The notes under the pieces: generated by a model
Database searches by the model: none
What the model was told of the DNA's origin: nothing
What the model saw: the letters and a program-made list of their open reading frames with translations, nothing else
In this document: piece by piece, positions 5,522 to 64,000 of the stretch
Layout: each line of letters begins with the position of its first letter
Numbering within the stretch: position 1 is the first letter of the stretch
Position numbers and translations under genes: made by a program
Origin: Bacteroidales bacterium
Lineage (GTDB): Bacteria > Bacteroidota > Bacteroidia > Bacteroidales > WCHB1-69
Direction: 5' to 3'
NCBI GenBank assembly: GCA_017540505.1
Contig: JAFYAW010000012.1
Span: 13,847 to 77,846, forward strand
Length of the DNA: 64,000 bases

Positions 5522-6574
5522 ATGAAAAAAATCCTGATTACCGGAGGTGCCGGTTTCATCGGCTCCCATGTTGTAAGACTTTTCGTCAACAAATATCCCG
5601 ATTACGACATCTATAACTTAGACAACCTTACATACGCCGGGAACCTCGAAAACCTGACCGATGTGGAAGGAAAAACCAACTACCATTTCATCAAGGGCGA
5701 TATTGCCGATCAGGATTTTATCATGAAAATCTTTCAGGAGCATCAGTTTGACGGGGTCATCCACTTGGCTGCCGAGTCACACGTGGACCGTTCCATCACC
5801 GACCCGATGACTTTCGTGCACACCAACGTGTTAGGCACCGTGCATCTGCTGAATGCCGCCCGCACCATTTGGAACGGCAATTGGGAAGGCAAGAAATACT
5901 ACCAGATCTCCACGGATGAGGTTTACGGAGCATTGGGGGCTACAGGCGCATTCCAGGAGACCACCCCATACAACCCGCACAGTCCCTACTCTGCCGCCAA
6001 GGCCAGTGCCGACCATTTCGTGCGCGCCTACCACGACACATACGGCATGCCGACCGTCATCAGCAACTGCTCCAACAACTATGGTCCGTACCAGTTTCCA
6101 GAAAAGCTTATTCCTTTGTTTATCAATAATATAAAACACAATAAACCGCTTCCTGTGTACGGTCAGGGCATCAACGTGCGTGACTGGCTCTACGTGGAGG
6201 ACCATGCCGAGGCCATCGACCTCATCTTCCACAAGGCCGCTCCCGGCTCTACCTACAACATCGGCGGCAATAACGAGTGGCGCAACATCGACCTCATCAA
6301 GAAGCTGATCGAGATCATGGACCGCAAGCTGGGCCGTCCAGAAGGCACTTCGCTGGCTTTGATTACCTACGTCACCGACCGCGCCGGCCACGACCTACGC
6401 TATGCCATCGACCCTACCAAGATCAAGAACGAGTTGGGCTGGCAGCCGAGAGTGAAGTTCGATGAAGGCTTCGAGAAAACCGTGGACTGGTACTTAGCCA
6501 ACGAGGAGTGGTTCAACCACGTCACCTCTGGAGCCTACGTGGACTACTACAAGAAAATGTACGAGGGACGATAG
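5522..6574 (+). CDS. rfbB: dTDP-glucose 4,6-dehydratase
   Basis: 350 aa. GGAGFIGSH Rossmann motif, SDR catalytic context YSAAKASAD (YxxxK), and LDNLTYAGNLENL typical of RfbB. Confidence 0.9.
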   Translation: MKKILITGGAGFIGSHVVRLFVNKYPDYDIYNLDNLTYAGNLENLTDVEGKTNYHFIKGDIADQDFIMKIFQEHQFDGVIHLAAESHVDRSITDPMTFVHTNVLGTVHLLNAARTIWNGNWEGKKYYQISTDEVYGALGATGAFQETTPYNPHSPYSAAKASADHFVRAYHDTYGMPTVISNCSNNYGPYQFPEKLIPLFINNIKHNKPLPVYGQGINVRDWLYVEDHAEAIDLIFHKAAPGSTYNIGGNNEWRNIDLIKKLIEIMDRKLGRPEGTSLALITYVTDRAGHDLRYAIDPTKIKNELGWQPRVKFDEGFEKTVDWYLANEEWFNHVTSGAYVDYYKKMYEGR

Positions 6575-26736: not shown

Positions 26737-28872
26737 ATGAAACTTGTTTCCAAAACCATTCTCCTTATAATCTGCCTGACCGCGGCCTCCTTCCATCTCC
26801 ATGCTCAAGAGATGCTGACGGGAGTGGTCCGCAACGCCGTCATCGCAAAGGCCGCTGCCAAAAGCCAACCCACCCGTGATCTGCCCACACCCGTGAAACT
26901 GCCCTTCATCGAAGATTTCTCCACCGGCATCGGCTATCCCAACCCGCACTATTGGACCGACCGGCAGGCTTTTGTCAACAACACATATCCCATCTACCCG
27001 CCCTCCATCGGGGTGGCCACGCTAGATGCCTTGGACGAGAACGGACGGGTGTATGCACACGCCGACCGCTCCACATTCCCCGCCGACACCCTCACCTCCG
27101 CACCCATCCGACTGGACAGCAACTTCTCCCAGCACAGACTTATGCGCATCGGTGACTCGCTCTATTTCAGCTTCTACTACCAGCCAGGCGGAGGCTGCCG
27201 CCAAAAACCACCTGTAGAGTGGATGCGTGTCGGCGACAAGCCCGAATATGACGACGAACTCATTCTGGAATTCGGATACGCCACCGGCAACCAGATATTC
27301 ATCGGATTCGCTTACGGCGACTTCACCGTTGGCGAAGGGGAACACTATCAGGCGGGCGACAGCTTGCCTAATCCTTTTATTCCAGGTACTTACTATGTTT
27401 TTGAAAACGCCGCCTTCCCCGGAGAGGTCATCATGATACCCTCCGACTCCCTGTTCGGTCCCGAATATGTGTGGAACGTGGTATGGTCCTCGCACGGCTG
27501 CTCGTTAGACTCCTGGCTGGCGGAAAATCCCTTGGATTATTTCAAACAGGTGATGATTCCCATCACCGACGAGCAATACCTGCGTCCCAACTTCCAATTC
27601 CGCTTCCGCAACTTCGCCTCCTTGGATCTGGACTCCTGGAGCAGCGGCAACATCGTGGGCTGGGCCAGCAACTGCGACCAATGGCACATCGACTACATCC
27701 GTTTGGATATCGGAAGAACTGCCAACAGCCTGTACCCCAGCGATGTGGCTTTTGTTTCGCCCACCACCAGCGCGCTGAATCTGTATCAAGCCATGCCCTG
27801 GAAACAATACCGTCCGTCGGACATGGCCGCCTCTTTCCACAACGACCTCAGCAACCTCTCCTCTTCGGCCATGAATACCTACTACTCCTACTCCGTTGTG
27901 AAAGAGCCCAACAGCTTCGTCTATGCCACGGACACATACAATGCCAACGCCTACCCCTATTATAACGACGGTCTCCATACCTACAGCTACCACGCCGACC
28001 CGTCCATTGATTTCGCCTACACGTATGACGGCCAGGATAGCGCCACGTTCCGCATCATGCACACATTCAGCCTGGTAGGTGCAAACGACGACTGCAAGTC
28101 CAACGACACCTGCATTTTTGAGCAGAAGTTCCACAACTACTACGCCTACGATGACGGCACCGCCGAGGCGGGCTACTGCCTCTACTCCACGATGACGCAT
28201 CCCGAGTCTTATCTGGCCGTCCAGTTCACGCTGGCCCAGCCCGACTCGCTGCAGTGCGTACGCTTCTGGTTCAACAGCGCCTTGAACGACGAAAACATCG
28301 ACTATTTCACCCTCATGGTCTGGGCCGACAACAACGGGGAACCCGGCGAAGTGTTATACTCGCTACCCTCGCAGCTGCCCGGCCACGCGGACGAGTTTCT
28401 GGATTTCGTAAGCTATTACCTCGAAGAGCCTATCGCCATAGAGGGCACCTTCTATGTGGGCTTCTACCAGAACCATAACGTGCAGCTTAACGTCGGCTTC
28501 GACCAGAACAACGACGCCAGCGGCCATTTCTTCTACAAAATTGCCAACGAATGGCTCCCGTCCTACTATGCAGGCGCACCTATGATCCGTCCCGTCGTCG
28601 GCAAGCGTTTCGATCACTCCGGAGTCCCCGCACGCACACAAGCCGACCTGCAGATCTACCCCAACCCCACGCACGACATTCTGCACGTGGAAACCGCTGA
28701 CAATCAAGATAATCTTTCCTATCAGGTATATGACATTTACGGCAAACTGTTGCAGTCAGGTTCCATCCTCTCCAACACCATCCGCTTGGGAGACTATGCC
28801 GACGGCCTCTATTTTGTCCGCATTTTGCAAAACAACCAAATCATCACCACCGAAAAAATCGTAAAGAAATAA
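26737..28872 (+). CDS. T9SS C-terminal sorting domain protein, function unknown
   Basis: 711 aa. Signal peptide MKLVSKTILLIICLTAASFHLHAQ. CTD: LQIYPNPTHDILHVETADNQDNLSYQVYDIYGKLL...GLYFVRILQNNQIITTEKIVKK. Confidence 0.7.
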   Translation: MKLVSKTILLIICLTAASFHLHAQEMLTGVVRNAVIAKAAAKSQPTRDLPTPVKLPFIEDFSTGIGYPNPHYWTDRQAFVNNTYPIYPPSIGVATLDALDENGRVYAHADRSTFPADTLTSAPIRLDSNFSQHRLMRIGDSLYFSFYYQPGGGCRQKPPVEWMRVGDKPEYDDELILEFGYATGNQIFIGFAYGDFTVGEGEHYQAGDSLPNPFIPGTYYVFENAAFPGEVIMIPSDSLFGPEYVWNVVWSSHGCSLDSWLAENPLDYFKQVMIPITDEQYLRPNFQFRFRNFASLDLDSWSSGNIVGWASNCDQWHIDYIRLDIGRTANSLYPSDVAFVSPTTSALNLYQAMPWKQYRPSDMAASFHNDLSNLSSSAMNTYYSYSVVKEPNSFVYATDTYNANAYPYYNDGLHTYSYHADPSIDFAYTYDGQDSATFRIMHTFSLVGANDDCKSNDTCIFEQKFHNYYAYDDGTAEAGYCLYSTMTHPESYLAVQFTLAQPDSLQCVRFWFNSALNDENIDYFTLMVWADNNGEPGEVLYSLPSQLPGHADEFLDFVSYYLEEPIAIEGTFYVGFYQNHNVQLNVGFDQNNDASGHFFYKIANEWLPSYYAGAPMIRPVVGKRFDHSGVPARTQADLQIYPNPTHDILHVETADNQDNLSYQVYDIYGKLLQSGSILSNTIRLGDYADGLYFVRILQNNQIITTEKIVKK

Positions 28873-30373: not shown

Positions 30374-32167
30374 ATGGCAAATTACAAATATCACATTCTG
30401 CTTTGCGGTGGTACTGGATGTACCGCTTCCGAAAGCCCGAAAATCAAAGAGAACTTTATCAACTTATTAGCTGAAAAGAATCTCAGCAACGACGTGCAAG
30501 TAGTCACCACCGGCTGTTTCGGTTTCTGTGAAAAGGGCCCCATCGTCAAGATTCTGCCCGACAACACGTTCTACACACAGGTGAAACCCGAAGACTGCCG
30601 CGAAATCATCGACGAGCACATCATCAAAGGTAGAAAAGTGCAGCGCCTGCTGTACGAAAACCCTGAGGATCAGAAACACATTTCCGACTCCAAGCACATG
30701 GGTTTCTACAAGAAACAGATGCGTATCGCGTTGCGTAACTGCGGTTTCATCGATCCTGAAAACATCGACGAATACATCGCACGCGACGGTTACAAGGCAT
30801 TGGCTTCCGTTCTGGAACAGAACGACCCCAAAGCCACCATCGACCTCATCAAGAAATCCGGTTTGCGTGGCCGTGGCGGCGCTGGCTTCCCCACAGGTTT
30901 GAAATGGGAACTCTGCGCCAAGAACGCCGCTGACCAGAAATACATCATCTGCAACGCTGACGAAGGCGACCCGGGTGCATTCATGGATCGTTCTATCTTG
31001 GAAGGCGACCCGCACTCCATCATCGAGGCTATGGCTATCGGTGGTTTCTGTATCGGTGCCACCATCGGTTTGGTTTACATCCGTGCTGAGTACCCACTGG
31101 CTATCCACCGTCTGCAGGTGGCTATCAAGCAGGCCCGCGAATACGGCCTGCTCGGCAAGGACATCTTCGGAACCGGTTTCGATTTCGACATCATCCTCCG
31201 CTACGGTGCCGGCGCATTCGTCTGCGGTGAGGAAACCGCTTTGATCCACTCCATGGAAGGTCTCCGTGGCGAACCTACCTTCAAACCGCCGTTCCCGGCC
31301 GTTGAAGGTTATCTCAAGAAACCGTCCAACGTGAACAACGTGGAAACCTACGCCAACATCCCTGTTATCATCAACAAGGGTTGGGAATGGTTCTCCTCCA
31401 TTGGAACAGAAAAATCCAAAGGTACGAAAGTGTTCGCTTTGGCTGGCCAGATCAACAACGTCGGTTTGATCGAAGTCCCGATGGGCATCACCCTGCGTGA
31501 GGTCATCTACGAAATCGGCGGCGGCATCAAGGGCGGCAAGAAATTCAAAGCCGTGCAAACCGGTGGTCCTTCCGGCGGTTGCTTGACCGAGAAGTTCCTC
31601 GACACCCCGATCGACTATGACAACCTCGTGGCTGCTGGCTCCATGATGGGCTCCGGCGGTATGATTGTCATGGACGAGACCTCCTGTATGGTTTCCGTGG
31701 CCAAGTTCTACCTCGACTTCACCGTGGAAGAGTCCTGCGGCAAGTGCTCACCCTGCCGTATCGGCAACAAGCGTCTGTGCGAAATCCTCGACAAGATCAC
31801 CAAGGGCCAAGGCACCATGGAAGACCTCGAGAAGCTCCGCAACTTGGCACACGTCATCAAAGATACTGCCCTCTGCGGTCTCGGCCAGACCTCCCCGAAC
31901 CCGGTATTGTCCACCATCGACAACTTCTGGGACGAGTATGTGGCACACGTGGTTGACAAGAAATGTCCTGCCGGCCAGTGCAAAGCCCTGAAACAATATG
32001 TCATCGATCCTGACAAGTGTAAAGGTTGTACGGCTTGCGCCCGCAACTGTCCAGTCGGTGCCATCAAGGGTACGGTGAAGATGCCGCATGAGATCAACCA
32101 AGAGCTCTGTATCAAGTGCGGTACCTGTATTGAAAAATGTAAGTTTAACGCAATTAGTATTAAATAG
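30374..32167 (+). CDS. hydB: NuoF-like NADH-binding flavoprotein subunit of [FeFe]-hydrogenase (HydB-type)
   Basis: 597 aa. N-terminal [2Fe-2S] context LLCGGTGCTAS...TTGCFGFCEKGP. FMN/NADH motif GLRGRGGAGFPTGLKW. ESCGKCSPCR. Two C-terminal ferredoxin motifs (CKGCTACARNCP, CIKCGTCIEKC). Confidence 0.88.
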   Translation: MANYKYHILLCGGTGCTASESPKIKENFINLLAEKNLSNDVQVVTTGCFGFCEKGPIVKILPDNTFYTQVKPEDCREIIDEHIIKGRKVQRLLYENPEDQKHISDSKHMGFYKKQMRIALRNCGFIDPENIDEYIARDGYKALASVLEQNDPKATIDLIKKSGLRGRGGAGFPTGLKWELCAKNAADQKYIICNADEGDPGAFMDRSILEGDPHSIIEAMAIGGFCIGATIGLVYIRAEYPLAIHRLQVAIKQAREYGLLGKDIFGTGFDFDIILRYGAGAFVCGEETALIHSMEGLRGEPTFKPPFPAVEGYLKKPSNVNNVETYANIPVIINKGWEWFSSIGTEKSKGTKVFALAGQINNVGLIEVPMGITLREVIYEIGGGIKGGKKFKAVQTGGPSGGCLTEKFLDTPIDYDNLVAAGSMMGSGGMIVMDETSCMVSVAKFYLDFTVEESCGKCSPCRIGNKRLCEILDKITKGQGTMEDLEKLRNLAHVIKDTALCGLGQTSPNPVLSTIDNFWDEYVAHVVDKKCPAGQCKALKQYVIDPDKCKGCTACARNCPVGAIKGTVKMPHEINQELCIKCGTCIEKCKFNAISIK

Positions 32168-32182
32168 TAAAAGGGTATTAAT

Positions 32183-33970
32183 ATGGATATGATAAAATTA
32201 ACAATAGACAATAGAGAAGTTGAAGTGCCGAAAGGTACCACTATTCTGAAAGCCGCTCAAGGCATGGGTATCGATATTCCTACCCTTTGCCATTTCGAGC
32301 TGAACAATTTAGGCGTGCACAACAAACCCGGCGGATGCCGTATTTGTGTGGTGGAAGTGGCCGGTCGTCGTAACCTGGCTCCCGCCTGTGTCACCGAATG
32401 TATGCCCGACATGGTGGTGAGAACCAACTCCATGCGCGTCATCAACGCCCGCAGAACCGTTCTCGAGCTGATCCTTTCCGACCACCCGGCCGACTGTCTG
32501 CAGTGCGCCAAGAACGGCAACTGCGAGCTGCAGAACCTCGCCGTGCGTTTCGGCATCCGCAAGAACCCGTTCATCGGACCGGAGCACTCCCAATCCTCCT
32601 ATCAGATTGAGGTTTCCCCGTCCATCATCCGCGACATGAACAAGTGCGTCATGTGCCGTCGTTGCGAGACGATGTGTAACGAGATGCAGACGGTGGGCGC
32701 TTTGTCCGCCATCGAGCGTGGTTTCCCGGCAGTGGTCTCCACCGCCTTCAACCAGCATCTGGATCACTCACCGTGTACCTTCTGCGGCCAGTGCGTCGCC
32801 GTTTGTCCGGTGGGCGCTCTTACCGAGGTTGACCACACCGGCGCCGTTCTCCGCGCCATCGTGGATCCTACCAAGAAGACGGTCGTCCAAGTGGCTCCCG
32901 CCGTGCGTGTGGCCATCGGCGAAGAGTTCGGCATGGAGCCCGGCACGATTGCTACGGGCAAGCTGACCGCCGCCCTGAAGGCCCTCGGTTTCGACTATGT
33001 ATTCGACACTGACTGGTCTGCCGACTTGACGATTATGGAAGAAGGCACCGAACTTATCGGCCGTCTGACCAAATATCTGGGTGGTGACAAGAGCGTTCCG
33101 CTTCCTATCCTCACCTCCTGCTGCCCTGCATGGGTGAACTTCTTCGAGCACCAGTTCCCTGAGATGAGAGATCTTCCTTCCACGGCAAAATCTCCGCAAC
33201 AGATGTTCGGTGCTATCGCCAAATCCTATTTTGCTGAAAAGATTGGTATCAAACGCGAAGATATGATCAGCGTGTCTGTGATGCCTTGCTTGGCCAAGAA
33301 ATATGAAGTTGGCCGTGACGAGTTCAAGGTAAATGGCAATCCTGATGTCGATTACTCCATCTCCACCCGCGAGTTGGCTCGTCTCATCAAGATGGCCAAC
33401 ATCGACTTCAAGTCCCTGCCTGATGCTGAATTCGACAGCCCGCTCGGTCAGTCCACTGGTGCTGGTGTTATCTTCGGTACCACGGGCGGTGTGATTGAGG
33501 CCGCTGTCCGTACCGCATACGAAGTCATCACCAAGAAACCGCTTCCGAAGATCGATTTCGAGGAACTGCGTGGTTTGGAAGGTGTTCGTAGCGCCACCAT
33601 CGATGTGGACGGCCTCAAGCTGAACATCGGTATCGCACATGGTCTGAAGAATGCCCGTAAGCTGCTGGAAGACATCAAAGCCGGCAAGTGCCAGTTCCAC
33701 GCCATCGAAATCATGGCTTGTCCTGGTGGTTGTATCGACGGTGCCGGTCAGCCGCTGCACCACGGTAATGCCGACATCATCAAGGCCCGTTGGGAAGCCA
33801 TCTACCGTGCCGATAGAGAGATGCCGATCCGTAAATCCCACGAGAACCCGTCCATCCAGGCCATCTACAAGGAATACCTGGGTGAACCTTGCGGTCACAA
33901 GTCTCACGAATTGTTGCACACCAACTATTTCGACAGACAGACCACCGTGGAAGTGGATTTAAACAAATAA
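32183..33970 (+). CDS. hydA: [FeFe]-hydrogenase catalytic subunit (HydA)
   Basis: 595 aa. N-terminal 2Fe-2S and 4Fe-4S domains (CRICVVEV, CLQCAKNGNCELQ, CVMCRRCETMC, CTFCGQCVAVCP). H-cluster motifs TSCCPAW, VMPCLAKKYE and EIMACPGGCIDGAGQP. Confidence 0.92.
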   Translation: MDMIKLTIDNREVEVPKGTTILKAAQGMGIDIPTLCHFELNNLGVHNKPGGCRICVVEVAGRRNLAPACVTECMPDMVVRTNSMRVINARRTVLELILSDHPADCLQCAKNGNCELQNLAVRFGIRKNPFIGPEHSQSSYQIEVSPSIIRDMNKCVMCRRCETMCNEMQTVGALSAIERGFPAVVSTAFNQHLDHSPCTFCGQCVAVCPVGALTEVDHTGAVLRAIVDPTKKTVVQVAPAVRVAIGEEFGMEPGTIATGKLTAALKALGFDYVFDTDWSADLTIMEEGTELIGRLTKYLGGDKSVPLPILTSCCPAWVNFFEHQFPEMRDLPSTAKSPQQMFGAIAKSYFAEKIGIKREDMISVSVMPCLAKKYEVGRDEFKVNGNPDVDYSISTRELARLIKMANIDFKSLPDAEFDSPLGQSTGAGVIFGTTGGVIEAAVRTAYEVITKKPLPKIDFEELRGLEGVRSATIDVDGLKLNIGIAHGLKNARKLLEDIKAGKCQFHAIEIMACPGGCIDGAGQPLHHGNADIIKARWEAIYRADREMPIRKSHENPSIQAIYKEYLGEPCGHKSHELLHTNYFDRQTTVEVDLNK

Positions 33971-48852: not shown

Positions 48853-51852
48853 CTAACGTTTCACCACCTTCCGAACGCACATCGAGCCATCGGTGCGCAT
48901 AACCTTCAGCAGCAGCACCCCTGACGGCATTTGCCCGATGGAGATTCTGCATTGGTCTTGGCTGCAACTTTCCGACATTAAAAGCTGTCCCGTAAGGCTG
49001 TATATCTCAATACGCTGCAAGTCCTGTCCCGAAACCGTGATCTGGTCAAATGCCGGATTGGGATACACACGCACACTCTCCGCCAATGTCGCATCATGAA
49101 CACCGCTGTTAAAGAAGTGCACATGGAACGTAAGGTTGCTTCCGTTTTCTTGTATATTCGTGATTTCAAAGCTGTTCTCCGGCGTGCCGTCCGTCAGATA
49201 AGGATACGGGTCCGTGGTCGGGCCAAAGGAGGTGCGCCCTTCCGCCGCGCAGAAATGCGCCATATTGATGTCGCCGTTCATCGTGTCACAATTGCTACCC
49301 GGACGGAAAATCCAGTACTGGTGCGCCTGATGCTCATAATCGAAAAAGGCGTTGGCAAACATACCTTGATAGTTCAGCGGAACCGTATCGTTCCAGCGTC
49401 CGATGATCAGTCCCGTGCCGGGAATGCCCTCATCGAACAGGTCGGCCTGGTTACGATACTCCAGAGTGAACCACTGGGTGCTGTCAATGGCGGAGCGAAT
49501 ATAATAGCAGCTCTGCGTTGGGGACGTAGCGTTGCTCAACAGTGTATAATCCCCATCCTCCGTAATCTCTACAGGTTCATCCGCCACCCGTAAAATCTTG
49601 GATTTGAACATCATATTCGTATGGTTCGGCGCATAGTTGCGACACATCATATCCCAATAGCCTGCAGGGTCAACCTCCGAATAACCCGTATAATGGTACA
49701 GGTCCGGCATGTTAAGCGAATGTCCCATCTCGTGCCGGAAGACATTTGCAGAGAAAAGAGAAGAGGATGCGCCCTCAAACTCGAAATTGAACGTATTGGG
49801 TTTCATCCCGTTGATACGGACCGGATAATCAATGGAATCATGAGGGAAAAACTCCATATGCGGCCAAAGTATGGAGGCCCAAGCCCCAGTCCCTCCTTTG
49901 ACGATGAAGCTGACGTTGTCAATATAGCCGTCACCGTCGCCGTCTAAGGTCACGTAAGTGTCCACCAATCTGTTGTTGTTCACATATTGCATGGCAGCGG
50001 CCAGCAGCTGAGCCTCCCGCATGGAGATGCCCACAAACGGGTTGGGACCTTGATACCCATCCGGATTGGTGGGGCTGTAAGGCTCGTAATAGCCGCGCGG
50101 ATGCTCGTCCATATACGAGACAATATGGTTCCCATACACTTGGTTGGCATATTTCGTGACATATCTTATTTTGCCGTATGACATTGTTTCAAAGAAATTA
50201 TAGACGCTCAAAAAGCCTGGCGTTTTACCATTGAACATAGTGTCAATCTGAGCAAAATCATGAGTTATCTCCTCATCATCGGCGAAGCGGATGAAAATCA
50301 CCAAGTTGGTGAGCTCCGACCGATTGCTGTCCACCACCCAGAAATCAATATCCGTGCGGAATTGTGCCGGAAACTGCATAGCACCCAAGGTGTTGGAGGC
50401 GTTGATGTCAATGGAATCGGAACTGCGATACATCATCACGTAATAGCTGCCCACAGGCAGATCGACGGTGTTCTGGAAGGCGTATTGCAGCGTGTCGCCG
50501 GCGGCAATGGTGAGATGCTGCACATCCAGCCATTTCACAAACTGCTGGCTGAGGTTCTCAATGATAGCCTGGCCCACAAAAAAATCGTCAGTAGTGTCAC
50601 CAACATTCACCATCCGGCTGTGTCCGCCCAACACGCCACCCTTCTGCACGCGGTCGGTGTCAAGGGAGGTTGTCTGCAGCAGGTCCGTAAACGGCGGATT
50701 GCCGGTGGTGGCAGGAACAAGGCCAAACGTGGCATTCTCATCGTGTGAGAAATTATAGTAGTAGGGAGTCAACGCCTCAATGGCAAAGTAAGCATCGTAA
50801 GAACCACCCCACCCCCAGTTCACATGAAAGTAGTCATCGTTGTCGTAACCGTCAATGATGAAGGCGTGTGCGCCAGAGTACGTGCCATTAACCGGATCAT
50901 AGTACGAGCTTCCGCTGTAGAGGACGGGAATCTGGTTGTCTAGGTCATTTTTGATCAGATTTTTCCATTGTGCATCTGTATAATTAGCCCTTTCACAAAG
51001 GGTTGCACTGTTCGAATAGCCGAAGAAGCGGGTGGCGCCATAATACTGCGACGACATCAGGGCGGCACTGCTGCCATTGCAGTCGCTATTGTATCTCATG
51101 TTCACAGCCACACCGCAATGGTAAAGCAGGGTGGCCACCGCTGTGCGCTCCGCCTGCGAGCTGCTGTCGGTAAGGCGAATGGGCATGTGGGCCCAGTCAT
51201 ACGTGGTGGCCCCGAAATTAGCCGACAGGGTATCATAATGCCAACAGGAATAGGATCCTTCCAAGGAGTAGGCGTGAGAGCCCCGGCCTTGCAGCGGCCA
51301 CTGCCAGTAGCGCATCACCTGGCCCAAGGCTAATGCCACACATCCCACAGCGGGATGCCCTCCATACTGGGGCAATGAAGTGTCCACTGGACAGAGGGCG
51401 TTGTAGCCATTTCCATTCGGGGAAGACTGATTCCATCGGGTAGCGATGAGCGGACTCACAGCACGGTCGTTCCGAGTGGGTTGATAGGCACAAGATTGGG
51501 CACCATCAGCCAAGGACTTTAGCTGAACCTCATACAAGGAGAGCCATCCGGTGAGTGCTTCAGGCATATCGGAGGATTCAAAGCTGCCGCTTTCGGAATA
51601 GGCCAGCACGGGACGTGTGCGGTCGTCGCCGCTCACCACCACAAAGCCGCCGCCTTCCACGTTGAACACAAAAAGGTGCTGGAACGGGGTGGTGACACTA
51701 TACACTTGATTGTCAGACCTTGTGGGATGATGGGCATTCACAAAGCCCAACGCCACATTCTTGGCAGAAAGGGGATCCACCGGCGCGGCGGGGGTCAGCA
51801 TCGGACATACACACAGGAAAAAGGCGATAATTGGAATGTAGAAATTTCTCAT
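48853..51852 (-). CDS. T9SS-secreted dual protease: C10 (streptopain-like) cysteine peptidase + HExxH (M6-like) metallopeptidase + CTD
   Basis: Start at MRNFYIPIIAFFLCVC, because the -7 box at 51872-51879 lies inside the longer ORF. C10 contexts ATRWNQSSPNGNGYNALCP and SGAHAFIIDGYD. Metalloprotease motif VFRHEMGHSLNMPDLYHY. CTD: VRVYPNPAFDQITVSG...GVLLLKVMRTDGSMCVRKVVKR. Confidence 0.75.
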   Translation of the reverse strand: MRNFYIPIIAFFLCVCPMLTPAAPVDPLSAKNVALGFVNAHHPTRSDNQVYSVTTPFQHLFVFNVEGGGFVVVSGDDRTRPVLAYSESGSFESSDMPEALTGWLSLYEVQLKSLADGAQSCAYQPTRNDRAVSPLIATRWNQSSPNGNGYNALCPVDTSLPQYGGHPAVGCVALALGQVMRYWQWPLQGRGSHAYSLEGSYSCWHYDTLSANFGATTYDWAHMPIRLTDSSSQAERTAVATLLYHCGVAVNMRYNSDCNGSSAALMSSQYYGATRFFGYSNSATLCERANYTDAQWKNLIKNDLDNQIPVLYSGSSYYDPVNGTYSGAHAFIIDGYDNDDYFHVNWGWGGSYDAYFAIEALTPYYYNFSHDENATFGLVPATTGNPPFTDLLQTTSLDTDRVQKGGVLGGHSRMVNVGDTTDDFFVGQAIIENLSQQFVKWLDVQHLTIAAGDTLQYAFQNTVDLPVGSYYVMMYRSSDSIDINASNTLGAMQFPAQFRTDIDFWVVDSNRSELTNLVIFIRFADDEEITHDFAQIDTMFNGKTPGFLSVYNFFETMSYGKIRYVTKYANQVYGNHIVSYMDEHPRGYYEPYSPTNPDGYQGPNPFVGISMREAQLLAAAMQYVNNNRLVDTYVTLDGDGDGYIDNVSFIVKGGTGAWASILWPHMEFFPHDSIDYPVRINGMKPNTFNFEFEGASSSLFSANVFRHEMGHSLNMPDLYHYTGYSEVDPAGYWDMMCRNYAPNHTNMMFKSKILRVADEPVEITEDGDYTLLSNATSPTQSCYYIRSAIDSTQWFTLEYRNQADLFDEGIPGTGLIIGRWNDTVPLNYQGMFANAFFDYEHQAHQYWIFRPGSNCDTMNGDINMAHFCAAEGRTSFGPTTDPYPYLTDGTPENSFEITNIQENGSNLTFHVHFFNSGVHDATLAESVRVYPNPAFDQITVSGQDLQRIEIYSLTGQLLMSESCSQDQCRISIGQMPSGVLLLKVMRTDGSMCVRKVVKR

Positions 51853-51871
51853 AGCCGTAAAAAACAAGGCG

Positions 51872-51879
51872 CAAAAATA
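51872..51879 (-). promoter_or_regulatory. Bacteroidetes -7 promoter box (TAnnTTTG)
   Basis: The minus strand reads TATTTTTG 20 nt upstream of the ATG at 51852. Confidence 0.5.
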
Positions 51880-51921
51880 GTAAAAATGCAACATATATTT
51901 TTCCCCTTCCGAGAGTTGTTG

Positions 51922-55586: not shown

Positions 55587-57611
55587 ATGAAACACAATCT
55601 TCCCCTTTACCAATTGATTCTTGCCATTCTCATTGCCAATTTCCCTTTCCTGACTGCGTACCCGCAGGGCGAGTGGAAGTGGGCGCACAGCTGGACCGGC
55701 AGCGGTGGCTCATACACTCAGATTTTCAACCAGATAACCAATACGGCGTTTGACGAGGATGGCAACATATACGTGTACGGCTCCATGGGAGGCAACCCCG
55801 AGATGGACGGGCAACACTTTCTCACTGATGTCCCTTCGGAGGTTTCGAACGGGGCCATCCCCACCATCTTGCTGGCCAAATTCGACACGTTGGGCAACAT
55901 GCTCTGGCACAAGATTGTGAAGTGCAGCGATGACGGAGGTCACATGTCCTCTCCCCAATGGATGGAAGTGCGGAACCGGAGGGTTTACATATCGGGGATA
56001 ACCGGTTTGTGGGGCGACTTCCCGACCGGCACATGGCTGTATTACATGGATACCCTGATACGGAAAGGGCAGGTTGACAGTATGCCCGAGAACGAACGGA
56101 GGCCGCCGTTCAAACGTAGCCAGTGGACCTTTTTCGCACAATTTGACCTGGACGGGAATCTGTTGGAGGACCATTTTGTGGAGGCGTACACGAGAGATAA
56201 AATCTTGAACGGGACAACATATATCCGACCTGTGCGACCTGTTGGTCAGGAAGGGGCAATGCCCACGCATGTGGATGATGGAGGCAATGTTTACCTGTTT
56301 GCGCGTTTTTATTATGCTGGAAACGAGGAAGATCCCTATACTATAGTGGTGGACGGGGATACGAACAAAACATACGACATATATCTGCCCGGAAGTGCTT
56401 GTAATTCCTACATGGCTTTCTGGAATACCATGTTTTACAAGTTCACGCCGGATTGGGAGCTGGAGTTTGCCAAACTGGTTGTGCAACAGACGGACGGGAT
56501 TGCCGCATCATGGGAATTTTTAGCGGATAGTGTGAACCCTCATTATGATATCAGGCCGGAGGGTATGTCTTACGATGAGGATGGCAACATGTATTTGTCA
56601 GGCTATATATTAATTTACATGTTCGACTATGAGACAGGGGGGCATCTGCACCATTACCCCATCCACATCTGGTGGGACAGCACCCACTGCGCCACCATAC
56701 AGGATATGAGCGGGGCATACCGTACGAACTTTATTATAAAATATGACACAAACGGTCGTGTGCAGTGGTGCAACCAGATGTACACAAAGGGTAACTCAAT
56801 AGAAACACCCTATGCGAGGGCCGAGTGGCGGAGAAACTGTATCAATAATGATTATATATACATACTTGGGGATGCGGCCTATACTCCAAACAGTTATGCG
56901 AATATCTATTTTGACACTGAAAACGACAGTTTGCGCCGATTTGTTCCATACGATTTCGGAATAGGTTTTTTCGTAAGGTATGACAAGAGAACTGGCCGTT
57001 ATGTTTCTCATGGGATTGTACCTGCGGAAAACGTGTTGACTTGTTTGACTCCTGCCGTTATTCAAAACCGGGTTTTTATGCTTGCCTCATTTGATTACGA
57101 AAGAAATTGTATGTACACCGAATTGAGTAGTGACGGTCATGAAATCAAGGCAGATACAATCAATACGTCTCAGCCAAAAATGCGAAAATCGTATGGGGTG
57201 ACCGCCAATGCGGACGGTTCCCTGCTGCTGTCGCTGACTTCGTTTTCGCCCGTGACGTTCAGCGATGACGTTGTGTCCAACAGCAATCCGGGGTCTGACA
57301 ACGCGGTGTTCGCGTTGTACAGGAATCCGGAATATGCGGAGCCTTACGTGGGGATTGCCGGTTATGGGGAAAGGGTGTCGGATCTGAGACTGTGGCCGAA
57401 CCCCGCTGGTGGCATCCTCCATGTGGAGGGCGGCCGGTCGCCCATGGACTACATCACCGTCAGCGACCTGAACGGACGGACGCTTTTGCGCAGGAGCGTC
57501 GGGGCCGGTTCCGCAACGATAGACGTTTCGCGGCTGCCTGCCGGAACCTATATCCTGGAGGCGGTGGGGAAAGGGGATGTGCGTACGGAAAAATTTGTCA
57601 AGACCAATTAG
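55587..57611 (+). CDS. T9SS C-terminal sorting domain protein with beta-propeller-like (SBBP-type) repeats
   Basis: 674 aa. Signal peptide. Repeated D(E/D)DGN(I/M)Y(V/L).G segments. CTD: LRLWPNPAGGILHVEGG...GTYILEAVGKGDVRTEKFVKTN. Confidence 0.7.
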   Translation: MKHNLPLYQLILAILIANFPFLTAYPQGEWKWAHSWTGSGGSYTQIFNQITNTAFDEDGNIYVYGSMGGNPEMDGQHFLTDVPSEVSNGAIPTILLAKFDTLGNMLWHKIVKCSDDGGHMSSPQWMEVRNRRVYISGITGLWGDFPTGTWLYYMDTLIRKGQVDSMPENERRPPFKRSQWTFFAQFDLDGNLLEDHFVEAYTRDKILNGTTYIRPVRPVGQEGAMPTHVDDGGNVYLFARFYYAGNEEDPYTIVVDGDTNKTYDIYLPGSACNSYMAFWNTMFYKFTPDWELEFAKLVVQQTDGIAASWEFLADSVNPHYDIRPEGMSYDEDGNMYLSGYILIYMFDYETGGHLHHYPIHIWWDSTHCATIQDMSGAYRTNFIIKYDTNGRVQWCNQMYTKGNSIETPYARAEWRRNCINNDYIYILGDAAYTPNSYANIYFDTENDSLRRFVPYDFGIGFFVRYDKRTGRYVSHGIVPAENVLTCLTPAVIQNRVFMLASFDYERNCMYTELSSDGHEIKADTINTSQPKMRKSYGVTANADGSLLLSLTSFSPVTFSDDVVSNSNPGSDNAVFALYRNPEYAEPYVGIAGYGERVSDLRLWPNPAGGILHVEGGRSPMDYITVSDLNGRTLLRRSVGAGSATIDVSRLPAGTYILEAVGKGDVRTEKFVKTN

Positions 57612-57637: not shown

Positions 57638-60600
57638 ATGAATAACACGCGTTTGTCTTTGCTGCTTCCGTTCCTGTTCGCGGTCAGTTTCGCTACGGCG
57701 CAGAACCAGCCGACGTGCAGGGTGTATATAAGCACCGGTTTCGACTCCGACTGCCTGCTGGACGAATACCCCGAACGGCTCCCAAACATGTTGGACCAGG
57801 GATCGGACGACTGCATGCTGGCCTGCAAGGGGAATGAGGTGGTTTACACCGCCGTCTGCGACAGCGGGATCCGGTTCACATGGAACATTTCCGGCGCGGC
57901 ATCCTATTATCTGACCGACCAGGACAGGACGGCAAATGTCAGATGGGGTGACGGGAATACGGGCAGCCTGTCGGTGACGGTGATTACTACAGACTCCAAC
58001 ATCTGCTCGGACGGGGTGTGCGTGCTCCTGATGGACCCGCCTGTGGCGGGATGCTCCTCCGTGCCCGCCTATTACATAGACTCGGCCGGGAACAAGGTGG
58101 TTGAGATCTGCCAGGGGGAGACGATATACTTCACGGACAGGAGCCGCGCGGGGCGCACACCCATCACCGGCTACGGGTGGAACAGCTGCTTCGGGGATGC
58201 CAGCACACAGAATTACACACTCACCCCTGCATTTGGAGGGGAATACCCGTTGCACCATTATGTGTGGAACGAGTGCGGATGCATGAACGAGGAGATTATC
58301 TATCTCAGAATAGGGCAGGAAGCCCGTCTTGAGCTGTCCTGCCACGGGACCGTCTGCGAGAACACCACGGCTACTTATACGGTGAACAGCCCCTCCTGCT
58401 CCCATTACCATTGGAGCGTGGAAGGGGGAACACTTGCGGGTCAGGATTCCCCCGAGATCACGGTCCAGTGGGGCAGTCCATCATCGGGCTACGGGGTCAT
58501 CTCGCTGGACCCCTATTTCTGCGACGGCGGCTGTCACTCCCTCTTTTCGGAGAGGATCCCGATTATTGTGGACCATGCTGTGATTAAGGGGTCCGACGAG
58601 GCCTGTGTGGGCGAGATCCAGCTGTACGAGCTTCCGATGTGGGGTTCCACCTGGTACCAGTGGCAGGTTCTGCCGGACAGCAACAGCACGGTTGCAGGCC
58701 ATGAGACGGAATACCGGAACCAGTGCATGCCGGAGTTCAAGCAGCCGGGGACCTATACCGTAAGGGCCGTGTACGCCTGCGAGTTCCTGGAGTGCGGCCC
58801 GTTCACCGCGCAGAAGACCGTCATCGTGAAGGACACCATGAGCGTCCGTTCCACGGACAGCGTGCTCTGCAGGGGCGACACCGGACGCTACACCACCTGG
58901 CACGGCAACAGTGTCACCTGGCGGGTGTACCGGCAGAACACGCATAACAGCTCCCTGCTGCACACCTCTGCCGGAATCGGCCTGGACTACGTTTTCGTAA
59001 CCCCGGGCAACTACAGGGTCGTGGCGTCAAACCCCGGCTATTGCAGGGATGCGGAGTTCCATGTGACGGTGCTGGACAACCCGCCCGCGCTGACCGCCGT
59101 GCAGGGGCCCGACGAGGCCTGTCCCAACAGTTCCATTCTCCTGTCGGCCACGCCCACCGCCCCCAACTACTACCTGCGGTGGGCCCCGCTCTGCCCCACG
59201 GCCACTCCTACGTCCGTGGAGGGCGATGAGGTGACGGTGAACTTCGGGGCCGAGGTGTGCGGTGTGGCGGTCTGTCAGGTGGACGACGAGTACGGCTGCC
59301 GCTCGGAGGCTTACGTCCATACGGTGGACACCTTCCGGCTGGCGCCCCACGGGCTGCCGGAGTTGAGCCACACCTGCGCCGGCTCCACGGTGACCTTCTC
59401 CGTTCCCGCACAGCCGGAACAGGTGACCTACGAGTGGACCCTGTCGCCCACCAACGCCGCGACGGTTGTCGGCGACCATCTCTCCCCGACGGTGCAGATA
59501 CTGACCAACCGCCTGAACGGGTTCACCTCCCCGACCATGGTGTATGTGACGCTGAAGAGGACCTGGTGCTCCAATCTGGAGGTGTATGAGACGGTGCGGA
59601 TTTCCGTTGAGAATGTGGAGGCGCCTTCGGTGGTGTATGAGGACACCGTCTGTGTGAACACCCCGGACTATTTCGTGGCCACTACGGGTACCCTTGACAA
59701 CAGGCATTACACATGGATATTCGACAGTTCCACTGTCGTACCGAGGATACGGGGTACGGATTACAGGTTCTCCACACCGGGAATCCACACATTCACGCTC
59801 AATTACCACCCGAATCCCCATTGCGACGCCGCCACCGTGTCGGGACAGGTGGTGGTGATGGCTCAACCTTCCTCTGAAATCACGTTTGCCGGCGACAGCC
59901 TGTATGTGGCGGTGCAGCCGGATGTGAGCTGTGCATGGGAGTTTGACGGGAATCCCATCCCCAATGCGCTTGGCCCGGCCTGCGCCGTTACGGATACGGG
60001 GACCTACACCTGTACGGTCACCAGCAATCTTCCGCCGTACTGCAGCAGCCATTCGGATTATTCCAACAGTATTCCAGACCCTGATCCGTGTCTGCTTTTC
60101 CCGCTGATAAATACTTTTGTCGATTGCACAGAGGCAATGATAATTGCACAAAATCCGACCAATAGCAAAATTCGTTGGAGTTCCCCGTGTGAGCCGAACT
60201 ATGATACAGACACGACCACTGCCATATTTGACGAACCTGGAATATACACGATTTTAGCGCAAACAGAGGATAGCGGGCAGTGCTATGTAGGATTGACGAA
60301 TGTTATTATAGACTGCGTCCCTGTTTTGCAGGTCAGATACGACTGCAACGGTCACCTTATAGTAAAGGACACCTCCCGATACCGTTACGGTTTCGCCATG
60401 CCCGCCCGCACCATTACGGTTGGGGGGACGGGGCTTACGGCCACCCTTACGGGCACCAACCGCACGGCCACCATTCCCATTGACACCTTGTCCCCCGGGG
60501 AATACACAGTGACGATGGACATGGGCATGGTGGTCCCGTGCAGCGCCACCGCCGTCTTCAGCTATGCGGGGAATCCTTCTGTCTCCGGCATCGGCATCCG

Positions 60601-62359
60601 CCGCAAGATGTGTGCGGGCACGCCCTTCCTGTTCACCGCCAGCGCCACGGGAAATATTGCACACTACCGGTGGAATTTCGGGGACAATTCCTATAACTTT
60701 GGGGACAGCATTTACCATACTTACTCCGATGCCCAAAATAGAATGGTTGTCACTCTTATTGTGACAGATTCGTGGGGTTGTACGGCTTCCGACACGGCGC
60801 ATGTGTTAGTTGGCGGGGAGATTTTGAATGGTCATTTGGATAAAGTAGGCTCTGCGGTATGTCCGGGAGAGTTCAGAAGAATCACATATACGGAGTTTTC
60901 TCCTTATAATGCCTATTACTGGAACTATGACATAATTCCATCACATAGCAACCAGTACAATACGACTGCCACGGGGGACTATTCCGTGATGGTGGAGACA
61001 GATGTCTGGGGTTGCCGGGCGGAGCGCCGCTGCAATGTGGGCTTCCTCAACGCACCCGTGGCCCGCATAAACGGAAGCACGGAGTACTGCCCGGGCGAGC
61101 CGGTGAGGCTCAAGGGCAACACGGGAAACTCAAACAGGTACAAATGGGTCATATCAGGGCCGGAGAACCATGTCTTCACCACGCCCAACATCAAATTCAA
61201 GCCTTCCACCAGCGGAAACTACTCGGTGTCGCTCCAGGTGACCAGTCCCGACGGCTGCGTTGATACGGCATCCTACTCGTTTGTGGTACATCCCAAACCT
61301 GTCACCCCTACAATCAAGTTGAGCGGATGTATTCATCAGGAGCCCGTCATAGCCACATGCACATCCGGACAGAACCTTCTGTGGAGCAACGGAGAATACG
61401 ACAGAGAGACAGGCTATTATGAAGATGGTTATCTTTCCGCTTATTACATAGATGCCATAACAGGCTGTCCGTCAGACAGGGTGTACGCCTACATCGAACC
61501 CGCACCCAACTACGATGCGCTGCTGACTGGTTGCTACACGATGTGTCCGGATTCCTTCATTTATCGTCTTCCCGTTTACGGGCTTTACCCTTATCATGCA
61601 TCGCAGATGCTTTGGCGTTGGTATCACGATGTTCAGGGCGAGATTGCCCATGGTACGAATCTGGACCCCAATTTGCCTTTGATTGATTATGGCAAGTACG
61701 AGATGGAAACAGAATACGGAGACAACTGTGTTTACAAGTCACCTGTTCTGTCAATAGAGCCAAAGGAACTTTGCCCGTGTGAGAAGATAGAGTTGACGAT
61801 TGAGGATATCCAATGCTATGTGGAGGAATGTAGAATGTATATCCATCTCTCCTTTGATGTCGCCAATTACGGCTCAAATCCTGTCACTTTTGACGACATA
61901 CAGGTGTTTATGGATAATAACATTTTGAATGTCACAGGATTGCCAATGTATCTTCCATCATACGGGAGTGATTTTTTAGAGCTTGATGTGGAGATATCGG
62001 ACCTTATAAGTTCCCTATTGGAGTTTGTGCTAATAGATTCGCAGATCGGCTGCGAGAAACGCTATACACAATGTCTGGATTTCTATCAGGAGGCCTATGA
62101 TTGCTTTGAAACGGATTGCAATCCGGACTATGTGTCATTGGACTTCTATCCGGATTTCATTCTGTCGCATCAAACGGCATACTTCCACTTTTATGCTCAC
62201 ATCCCGGCTGCGACAGATGTGGTTTCCGTATGGAGTACCCCTTCGCAAGTGATCAGCTTCATATCATATCCGCCAGATAATTTGGATGGTCTGCTGATGT
62301 TGGACTATGGTCGGCTGATGCAGATGGCAATGAATGGGAGTATGTTTGCATTAATATGA
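57638..62359 (+). CDS. giant Cys-rich PKD/Ig-like repeat surface protein (adhesin-like), lacking its own T9SS CTD
   Basis: 1573 aa. Signal peptide MNNTRLSLLLPFLFAVSFATAQ. Many Cys-framed Ig-like modules. One clear PKD motif: HYRWNFGDNSYNFGDSIYHTYSDAQNRMVVTLIVTDSWGCTASD. Ends at the TGA at 62357-62359, inside an ATGA overlap. Confidence 0.75.
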   Translation: MNNTRLSLLLPFLFAVSFATAQNQPTCRVYISTGFDSDCLLDEYPERLPNMLDQGSDDCMLACKGNEVVYTAVCDSGIRFTWNISGAASYYLTDQDRTANVRWGDGNTGSLSVTVITTDSNICSDGVCVLLMDPPVAGCSSVPAYYIDSAGNKVVEICQGETIYFTDRSRAGRTPITGYGWNSCFGDASTQNYTLTPAFGGEYPLHHYVWNECGCMNEEIIYLRIGQEARLELSCHGTVCENTTATYTVNSPSCSHYHWSVEGGTLAGQDSPEITVQWGSPSSGYGVISLDPYFCDGGCHSLFSERIPIIVDHAVIKGSDEACVGEIQLYELPMWGSTWYQWQVLPDSNSTVAGHETEYRNQCMPEFKQPGTYTVRAVYACEFLECGPFTAQKTVIVKDTMSVRSTDSVLCRGDTGRYTTWHGNSVTWRVYRQNTHNSSLLHTSAGIGLDYVFVTPGNYRVVASNPGYCRDAEFHVTVLDNPPALTAVQGPDEACPNSSILLSATPTAPNYYLRWAPLCPTATPTSVEGDEVTVNFGAEVCGVAVCQVDDEYGCRSEAYVHTVDTFRLAPHGLPELSHTCAGSTVTFSVPAQPEQVTYEWTLSPTNAATVVGDHLSPTVQILTNRLNGFTSPTMVYVTLKRTWCSNLEVYETVRISVENVEAPSVVYEDTVCVNTPDYFVATTGTLDNRHYTWIFDSSTVVPRIRGTDYRFSTPGIHTFTLNYHPNPHCDAATVSGQVVVMAQPSSEITFAGDSLYVAVQPDVSCAWEFDGNPIPNALGPACAVTDTGTYTCTVTSNLPPYCSSHSDYSNSIPDPDPCLLFPLINTFVDCTEAMIIAQNPTNSKIRWSSPCEPNYDTDTTTAIFDEPGIYTILAQTEDSGQCYVGLTNVIIDCVPVLQVRYDCNGHLIVKDTSRYRYGFAMPARTITVGGTGLTATLTGTNRTATIPIDTLSPGEYTVTMDMGMVVPCSATAVFSYAGNPSVSGIGIRRKMCAGTPFLFTASATGNIAHYRWNFGDNSYNFGDSIYHTYSDAQNRMVVTLIVTDSWGCTASDTAHVLVGGEILNGHLDKVGSAVCPGEFRRITYTEFSPYNAYYWNYDIIPSHSNQYNTTATGDYSVMVETDVWGCRAERRCNVGFLNAPVARINGSTEYCPGEPVRLKGNTGNSNRYKWVISGPENHVFTTPNIKFKPSTSGNYSVSLQVTSPDGCVDTASYSFVVHPKPVTPTIKLSGCIHQEPVIATCTSGQNLLWSNGEYDRETGYYEDGYLSAYYIDAITGCPSDRVYAYIEPAPNYDALLTGCYTMCPDSFIYRLPVYGLYPYHASQMLWRWYHDVQGEIAHGTNLDPNLPLIDYGKYEMETEYGDNCVYKSPVLSIEPKELCPCEKIELTIEDIQCYVEECRMYIHLSFDVANYGSNPVTFDDIQVFMDNNILNVTGLPMYLPSYGSDFLELDVEISDLISSLLEFVLIDSQIGCEKRYTQCLDFYQEAYDCFETDCNPDYVSLDFYPDFILSHQTAYFHFYAHIPAATDVVSVWSTPSQVISFISYPPDNLDGLLMLDYGRLMQMAMNGSMFALI

Positions 62360-62754
62360 TTGTGTGTGTTGACGGGGGCGGGTTATGCCGCACACAGTAT
62401 TGCATCCTGGCGTCGGATCTGTTGGCTGACATTCCCGAGGTGTTCCGTCATCTTTCCGATTCTTCCATGGCGGATAACGACACCACCCGCAGCCTCCGCT
62501 TCGGAGATGTAGGGGGACAGTCATCAGCTAAGCCATATCTCGCGCCCAACCCCGCCCGTGACGAGGTGACGGTGATGGGTATCCCTCCTGGGGAAGTGGC
62601 CGAGATAATGGTCCTTACCATGCAGGGCGGCCAGGTTGCCATCTACCGCAACGACTGCCGTTTCGATGTCAGCCGCCTCGCCAAGGCGAGCTACATCGTC
62701 CGCGTGATTACCAACGACAGGAAGGTGCATTATCTAAAATTGGTGAGGCAGTAG
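62356..62754 (+). CDS. detached T9SS C-terminal sorting domain ORF (probably the displaced 3' end of the upstream gene)
   Basis: 132 aa, no signal peptide. C-terminal 75 aa are a type-A CTD: PYLAPNPARDEVTVMGIPPGEVAEIMVLTMQGGQVAIYRNDCRFDVSRLAKASYIVRVITNDRKVHYLKLVRQ. The frame differs from 57638-62359. Confidence 0.6.
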   Translation: MIVCVDGGGLCRTQYCILASDLLADIPEVFRHLSDSSMADNDTTRSLRFGDVGGQSSAKPYLAPNPARDEVTVMGIPPGEVAEIMVLTMQGGQVAIYRNDCRFDVSRLAKASYIVRVITNDRKVHYLKLVRQ

Positions 62755-63733: not shown

Positions 63734-64000
63734 CTTGATGATTCTAAATAGCTGTTCTGCTTGTCAATAACTTCAAATTCGGAATTCTGGCTCTTGTATT
63801 CGTGAACCACCTCCTTCATCTGCGCCACGATGGTGAAATCGTCCTCGTTTTGCAGGTCGATGAGCTTCTGGATGGCGGGTGCCAACGTCTCATACTCATA
63901 CGTGCGCACCTTGGCGATCATGATTTTTTTGTGTTCCGTCTTGATGGTGTTCTCCTCCGTGGCTAATAATTCCTCATACAGTTTCTCACCCGGCCGCAAA
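63730..64000 (-). CDS. polysaccharide biosynthesis protein, CapD/WbpM-like nucleotide-sugar dehydratase/epimerase; C-terminal part only, 5' end outside the window
   Basis: RPGEKLYEELLATEENTIKTEHKKIMIAKV is the conserved C-terminal block of the CapD/FlaA1 family. Confidence 0.7.
   Translation of the reverse strand, partial: LRPGEKLYEELLATEENTIKTEHKKIMIAKVRTYEYETLAPAIQKLIDLQNEDDFTIVAQMKEVVHEYKSQNSEFEVIDKQNSYLESSR

Follow-up and report, generated by a model that had tools for sequence, protein, structure and literature searches.

A T9SS cargo gene of ruminant-gut Bacteroidales, probably inactivated by the recent loss of a single G

We analysed a stretch of 64,000 nucleotides from a Bacteroidales bacterium (assembly GCA_017540505.1, contig JAFYAW010000012.1, positions 13,847 to 77,846 of the forward strand), referred to below as the window, in which a giant secreted protein and a C-terminal sorting domain (CTD) of the secretion system of type IX (T9SS) are encoded by two adjacent open reading frames (ORFs). 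The large ORF (57638-62359, + strand, 1573 amino acids, aa) is in frame 2 mod 3 and the small ORF (62356-62754, + strand, 132 aa) in frame 1 mod 3. They share the four bases ATGA, and the frame of the small ORF is shut on its 5' side by a TAA at 62278-62280; all of this had been described in a first-pass annotation made from the sequence alone, and all of it was found in place. In NCBI the two products are entered as MBR6160819.1, 'PKD domain-containing protein', and MBR6160820.1, 'T9SS type A sorting domain-containing protein', both from the same metagenome-assembled genome (MAG), named 'Bacteroidales bacterium'. On the evidence of sequence comparison a single gene has been split into the two ORFs; it encodes a large secreted surface protein of an uncultured ruminant-gut Bacteroidales bacterium. 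We consider it very likely that the window carries an ordinary, recent loss-of-function allele of this T9SS cargo gene, the result of a 1-nt deletion, and that intact alleles exist in sister strains. The parts of the gene are the following, where P0023 is an intact homologous protein and residue numbers of the model refer to a structure prediction for the last 430 residues of the repaired protein, with confidence given as the predicted local distance difference test (pLDDT).

57638..57700, + strand: Sec signal peptide, MNNTRLSLLLPFLFAVSFATA/Q, from the translation, read by eye
57638..62338, + strand: 5' part of the ancestral gene, residues 1-1567 of 1705, with the original frame kept; collinear with P0023 as far as '...QMAMNG'
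58346..58486, + strand: PKD_6-type module, aa 237-283 (PF19408, 37.7 bits)
60572..60805, + strand: PKD domain, aa 979-1056 (PF18911, 71.1 bits)
62129..62448, + strand: penultimate beta-sandwich domain, split by the frame break; model residues 223-329, pLDDT 77-89
62336..62338, + strand: site of the lesion, GGG in the window and GGGG in intact alleles, from DNA comparison
62338..62754, + strand: 3' part of the ancestral gene, residues 1568-1705, EYVCINMIVC...KLVRQ, which now lies in the -1 frame; repair gives 1705 aa
62339..62359, + strand: out-of-frame tail SMFALI and TGA, the first out-of-frame stop, from the translation
62356..62754, + strand: 132-aa ORF as called (MBR6160820.1), its ATG a Met codon from the interior of the ancestral gene
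62452..62526, + strand: predicted disordered linker from the last beta-sandwich domain to the CTD; model residues 331-355, pLDDT below 50
62542..62748, + strand: T9SS type A CTD, aa 63-131 of the small ORF (TIGR04183, PF18962), model residues 359-428

The signal peptide was recognised by inspection only: its n-region is basic, its core is hydrophobic, and an A-x-A site precedes Gln. In Pfam the large ORF matches PKD_4 (71.1 bits, cut-off 27), PKD (40.1 bits, cut-off 23.5) and PKD_6 (37.7 bits, cut-off 25), and no sorting domain was found in it, which agrees with the earlier description of a giant protein that lacks a CTD. That description also spoke of 'dozens' of modules. This is too many, as Pfam gives about three PKD-type regions and a length of 1.6 thousand residues holds roughly 15-18 beta-sandwich modules. 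When solved structures were searched by sequence the PKD domain at 60572-60805 gave a weak match to the PKD domains of collagenases (4jrw and 2y72, E ~1e-3), and there was no match besides these. The small ORF does end in a type A CTD, which scores 24.9 bits against TIGR04183 (cut-off 23), and only the word 'textbook' that had been applied to it is slightly generous, the score of 26.3 bits against Pfam PF18962 being just under the gathering score of 27. The signal peptide and the CTD of the window are in different frames with a stop codon between them, and P0023 unites both in one protein.

That the two ORFs derive from one gene is suggested by their homologues. A query in which the final ~300 aa of the large ORF were fused to the small ORF was searched against a protein collection. 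The best matches (P0001-P0008 and P0013, 31-54% identity) are single proteins that cover 81-100% of this fusion. The junction is read through by all nine of the retrieved protein homologues, and for most of them the CTD is recorded (PF18962 at 31.1 bits in P0001). Around the junction the homologues have the motif '...LTQMAxxGExVCFHxIVCxDxxxLCHxKxC...'. In the window 'QMAMNG' is read from the upstream frame and 'EYVCINMIVCVDGGGLCRTQYC' from the downstream frame, and joining the two at 62338 gives a gapless alignment, from which it is predicted that one base is missing at the GGG of 62336-62338. The repaired junction, 'QMAMNG/EYVCINMIVC', fits the family motif 'QMAxxGExVCxHxIVC', and the peptide that spans it reads LMQMAMNGEYVCINM. 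Four invariant Cys follow immediately past the break (C296, C302, C309 and C314, in model numbering). Among relatives in GTDB species-representative genomes, which belong to other species, a single open frame passes through the junction in 22 of 23, and the gene is 1340-1744 aa long in those cases where the whole of it lies inside the fetched DNA. All of these relatives are Bacteroidales that have not been cultured; they come from rumen, horse, reindeer, yak and comparable sources. No close copy of the gene is present among the species-representative genomes (best identity 54%), and the CTD-less architecture was seen in no relative. The first-pass annotation had argued that the two ORFs look like one gene and had proposed orthologues as a check; the homologues, the relatives and the existence of intact 1705-aa alleles all bear this out.

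The close alleles that reveal the lesion were located via the protein cluster of the window gene, not via GTDB representatives. This cluster, at 90% identity, includes intact members of 1702-1706 aa. The protein P0023 (MBQ6071452.1) has 1705 aa, reads '...QMAMNGEYVCINMIVC...' as predicted, and is encoded on 19 contigs with the same neighbours as the window gene. At 62333-62344 the window reads AATGGGAGTATG, and the intact loci L044-L049 read AATGGGGAGTATG. This change from four G (G4) to three (G3) at 62336-62338 is the sole indel between the window and these loci, which are 99.88-99.94% identical over 7-12 kb, and insertion of one G into the window sequence restores an ORF of 1705 aa. Relative to the intact alleles the ORF of the window is disrupted, as is characteristic of a pseudogene or loss-of-function allele. 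Of the explanations that the earlier reading had left standing, a fixed indel or pseudogene allele is the one that fits, and the lesion falls inside the interval 62281-62359 to which any frame-changing event had been confined. The frame change had been placed at the ATGA itself; the lesion is instead 18 nt 5' of it. A scan of JGI metagenomes with GGCAATGAATGGN{0,3}AGTATGTTTGCATT, a pattern aimed at alleles from G2 to G5, gave no match; the sequences of this organism occur in ENA, Logan and NCBI data only.

The split G3 arrangement is reproduced base for base on no fewer than 12 contigs, which come from at least seven samples and three assembly types, namely ENA 'scaffold' assemblies (several of the SAMN158300xx series), the ENA k141 assemblies ERZ28019012 and ERZ27256859, and the Logan contig SRR31077518. 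Among the G3 samples are SAMN15830045 (ERZ28653461) and SAMN15830000 (ERZ28654247), and G4 samples include ERZ28018714, SAMN15829925 and SRR12529377/383/030/378. Among 15 sequences, made up of the window and 14 loci, linkage of G3 to a single haplotype is complete; this haplotype is defined by single-nucleotide polymorphisms (SNPs) at 59450, 59931, 60440 and 61167, up to 2.9 kb away from the lesion, and G3 and G4 never share a haplotype. Inside the G3 clade there are four SNPs, one nonsense, two missense and one synonymous, which are very few events. The nonsense change is in L005 (ERZ28654247 scaffold_426), which has an additional G>T at 61214 (Gly1193stop) and whose gene is called as three pieces of 1192, 377 and 132 aa. 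Of two other G3 strains one has F14L and the other has S1203N and the synonymous change. By this pattern the G3 allele is real, recent and of single origin, and it circulates in ruminant-gut metagenomes beside intact alleles.

The repaired last 430 residues were modelled with AlphaFold2 from a 10-sequence alignment (mean pLDDT 74). The model consists of successive beta-sandwich domains, the disordered linker and the CTD, which is modelled as a beta-sandwich of seven strands. The break falls between model residues 292 and 293, within the penultimate domain and not in the linker, and only the downstream frame encodes the last two strands of this domain (294-303 and 307-316), one helix and the four invariant Cys. 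Because the break sits inside a predicted beta-sandwich domain, the ATGA overlap is coincidental. A Foldseek search of the C-terminal model against the PDB returned only generic multi-immunoglobulin or macroglobulin-type matches (TM-score 0.14-0.25), a result that is uninformative in that it says no more of the predicted fold than 'tandem beta-sandwiches'. The region at 61465-62450 (~aa 1277-1600 of the repaired protein) is a Cys-rich, family-specific module with ~10 invariant Cys, for which tandem beta-sandwiches are predicted. It takes up the ~300 aa that separate the last PKD-like region from the CTD, matches nothing in Pfam or NCBIfam, and in the searches made was confined to uncultured Bacteroidales of the herbivore gut.

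From these observations the following course of events can be proposed. The intact cargo of ~1705 residues comprises a Sec signal peptide, a long chain of PKD/immunoglobulin (Ig)-like beta-sandwiches, a short disordered linker and the type A CTD. In the lineage of the window one G was lost from the GGGG run, and translation from the normal start then runs out of frame after residue 1567, adds six wrong residues and stops at 62357-62359. The product retains the signal peptide and is without the linker, the CTD and the last two strands of the penultimate domain. It may be expected to be exported to the periplasm but not passed to the T9SS, and would never reach the surface. This periplasmic fate is predicted because constructs of the Porphyromonas gingivalis protein RgpB that lack the CTD stay in the periplasm; truncations of the RgpB CTD led to periplasmic accumulation and no secretion (Seers et al. 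2006; Nguyen et al. 2007; as summarised in PMC5445135). The 132-aa ORF arises only from the way ORFs are called: it begins at a Met codon inside the gene and runs through the orphaned 3' end. Its product, if translated at all, would stay in the cytoplasm, as it has no signal peptide, and for that reason it cannot be T9SS cargo. The window allele would therefore be a null for surface display.

Some points weigh against this view of the allele. The loss of function is predicted for an uncultured organism, and the divergence of ~0.1% between the alleles gives almost no power to detect relaxed selection. The truncated 1573-aa protein could in principle have a periplasmic role, or be released via lysis or vesicles. 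Finally, the comparison was made on assembled contigs, and low-level G4 subpopulations may be present inside the G3 samples.

The same data have been set against other explanations. Under phase variation the G tract would be a contingency locus, with reversible slippage within a population between an 'on' state (G4) and an 'off' state (G3) of the surface protein. The lesion is a one-base change in a homopolymer, both tract lengths were found in samples of one study in near-identical strains, and surface proteins are typical targets of such switching. Known slippage-prone homopolymers are usually 7 nt or more, however, and a tract of 4 nt is far below this length. Furthermore, G3 is confined to one SNP haplotype and G4 to others, the repaired protein on the haplotype of the window, which would be its 'on' version, is missing from a collection of 15 billion proteins, and the extra nonsense mutation of L005 would not be tolerable for a reversible switch. 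There is also no conserved G tract, because the codon pair varies in P0026 (an intact allele, divergent here) and in distant relatives ('ETGED', 'VNDEY', 'EHDEW', 'ANNES'). The 'phase-off allele' of the first-pass annotation is for these reasons very unlikely. It is conceivable that the frame change is a functional one, either a programmed -1 frameshift within 62281-62359 or termination and reinitiation at the ATGA, giving two cooperating products. The shift required is indeed -1, and a stop/start overlap of the form ATGA is present. Programmed slippage had already been disfavoured because 62281-62359 holds no homopolymer of more than 3 nt and lacks an X XXY YYZ heptamer, and both statements are correct. 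Such a heptamer in the zero frame is in fact absent from the whole of 62270-62362, the best re-pairing at any codon is two of three bases, and a -1 slip at the GGG codon likewise re-pairs only two of three. No stimulatory structure is indicated downstream either (minimum free energy of 62339-62440 -25.5 kcal/mol, mean of shuffled sequences -29.8, z = +1.27). The frame break is not conserved, since all close alleles outside the G3 clade and nearly all of the distant relatives (22/23) are in frame, and it lies inside a domain. A CTD fragment without a signal peptide could not reach the periplasm, and we know of no case of a CTD acting in trans. The ATGA was tried as a designed coupling signal and rejected, as its ATG is an internal Met codon in the intact alleles too ('INMIVC', 'VCINMIVC') and its TGA is merely the first out-of-frame stop. 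Recoding or coupling is consequently extremely unlikely in our estimation.

We give least credence to a sequencing or assembly artefact, in which the true genome would be G4 and one G dropped by the pipeline. Homopolymer miscounts are a common class of error and the window comes from a MAG. The number of contigs, samples and assembly types that carry G3 speaks against an error of this kind, as does the correct assembly of G4 by the same pipelines in other samples, and the co-segregation of G3 with four SNPs as far as 2.9 kb away is not what an error would produce; this disposes of the assembly error that had been among the earlier options. It is also very improbable that the truncation is neofunctionalised, that is, that the CTD-less 1573-aa protein is not a null and has been kept for a periplasmic or vesicle-borne role. 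In keeping with such a role G3 is fairly widespread, on at least 12 contigs, and in L008 it lies beside a divergent downstream polysaccharide gene, so that it has survived at least one nearby recombination event. Yet the break ruins the last domain and does not trim the protein at a domain boundary, the further nonsense mutation in one strain costs another 380 residues, and no relative has a CTD-less architecture. A somewhat different possibility, unlikely though less so than any of these, is that the G3 null is held at appreciable frequency since the loss of a surface protein is sometimes advantageous (against phage, host antibody or protozoal grazing), and that function is restored by rare G3-to-G4 reversion or by recombination with intact mosaic alleles. 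If true, an uncultured rumen lineage of Bacteroidales would have a T9SS adhesin whose on and off states form a slow polymorphism. We prefer the simple explanation of an ordinary, recent deletion allele.

The composition of the gene changes towards its 3' end. The last ~1 kb of the large ORF had been reported to be AT-richer, and this is so, with a GC content of 0.41 at 61650-62099 versus 0.69 at 59100-59399 and a drop at third codon positions as well. In the first two-thirds of the gene the GC content at third codon positions (GC3) lies at 0.7-0.9; it then alternates between 0.47 and 0.80, with 0.48-0.57 across the ~1.2 kb before the CTD and 0.72 in the CTD. Two relatives with a similar overall GC content (L023 and L030) have a far smaller dip in GC3. 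Alleles P0022, P0024 and P0026 of one 90% cluster are mosaic. In comparison with P0023, P0024 is 84-98% identical in the first 1400 aa and 100% identical in the last 300, and it has a different signal peptide, while P0026 has a block of 53% identity at aa 1500-1600. The earlier suggestion of a 'swapped 3' module' is thus supported in part, by the mosaic alleles and by the fall of GC3 from 0.7-0.9 to ~0.5 in the 3' third. Because the alleles of the cluster are mosaic, recombinational exchange of 3' segments in this adhesin gene is plausible; it is unrelated to the frameshift. The CTD segment itself (62539-62751 in the window, and the last 216 nt in L010, L016 and L017) is 74-83% identical in protein and 75-81% in DNA across species. 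The 300 aa before it are far less conserved (33-46% protein identity). In low-GC relatives the CTD has a GC3 of ~0.8, and the remaining coding sequence one of ~0.4. These features of the CTD segment might be due to an exchange of CTD cassettes, to gene conversion or to a strong constraint on codons.

Two further members of the family were noted among the relatives. The locus L026 (CALDIA010000177.1), in another MAG, has a putative frame break of its own at ~6240-6250, '...SPELQIE/REYCPCE...', upstream of the break site of the window, and there is a cluster of near-identical sequences that are intact (P0002). A 2.6-kb contig in a MAG labelled Selenomonadaceae (L035, JAFYNH010000077.1) encodes a CTD 78% identical to that of this adhesin family. 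Its presence in a Firmicutes-labelled MAG is probably due to contamination by Bacteroidales sequence during binning.

The adhesin gene directly follows another gene with a T9SS CTD.

55587..57611, + strand: gene for a protein of 674 aa, upstream of the adhesin, that ends in a separate T9SS CTD (aa 602-670; Por_Secre_tail, 34 bits)

This gene ends 26 nt before the start codon of the adhesin and is present at every allele locus, and the two are probably co-transcribed. The downstream neighbour, on the opposite strand, encodes a GFO/IDH/MocA oxidoreductase. At least four further CTD proteins are encoded in the window (21730-25779, 26737-28872, 48853-51894 on the - strand, and 55587-57611), a number that fits a T9SS-using Bacteroidales organism. 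The protein at 48853-51894 is a Peptidase_C10 (streptopain-like) with an Inhibitor_I69 prodomain, and one of the four has a PGAP1-like lipase/esterase domain. Locus L008 (ERZ28654293 scaffold_8022) matches the window with 100% identity across the adhesin gene and the oxidoreductase gene downstream of it, and then diverges abruptly at 63747-64000, with 204 mismatches in ~250 nt, at the start of the gene for a CapD-like protein (Polysacc_synt_2). The divergence has the appearance of a recombination boundary at a strain-variable polysaccharide locus ~1 kb from the adhesin gene. Elsewhere in the window, at 30374-33970, genes for a NuoF-like flavoprotein subunit and the large subunit of an [FeFe]-hydrogenase are adjacent, and they look like part of a hydrogenase module of the electron-bifurcating type, unrelated to the adhesin.

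The feature described here is an ordinary one, and its importance beyond correct annotation is small. MBR6160819.1 and MBR6160820.1 should be annotated together, as a single gene with a frameshift that is a pseudogene allele of MBQ6071452.1. In catalogues of T9SS cargo drawn from MAGs, an 'orphan' CTD ORF without a signal peptide beside a CTD-less giant is then to be read as a broken gene and not as a new architecture. The two kinds of allele also represent a natural presence/absence polymorphism of a large surface protein in near-clonal rumen strains. Nothing specific to frameshifted T9SS cargo came up in a search of the literature. Like other T9SS cargo with a type A CTD (for example P. gingivalis RgpB; TIGR04183 and PF18962), the intact allele has a Sec signal peptide, an Ig-like/PKD passenger and a beta-sandwich sorting domain of ~70 aa. 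It differs in that the passenger family is uncharacterised and has no Pfam match in the conserved stretch of ~300 aa that precedes the CTD, and the window allele differs in that its CTD is in another frame, outside the exported polypeptide. The engineered RgpB truncations resemble the window allele as cargo with an intact signal peptide and no CTD, but were made in a cultured species (PMC5445135), whereas here the allele is a natural one of an uncultured rumen Bacteroidales and its phenotype is predicted. With surface genes that vary in phase through homopolymer tracts the allele has in common that one G gained or lost toggles the frame; unlike them it has a tract of 4 nt, its two states are on different haplotypes and there is no evidence of reversion. 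The closest likeness is to frameshift pseudogenes and strain-polymorphic loss-of-function alleles of surface proteins, which share with it a single-base indel in a short homopolymer, intact sister alleles and perhaps the onset of secondary disabling mutations, of which L005 has one. From these it differs in nothing material; the allele is very young, ~0.1% from intact alleles.

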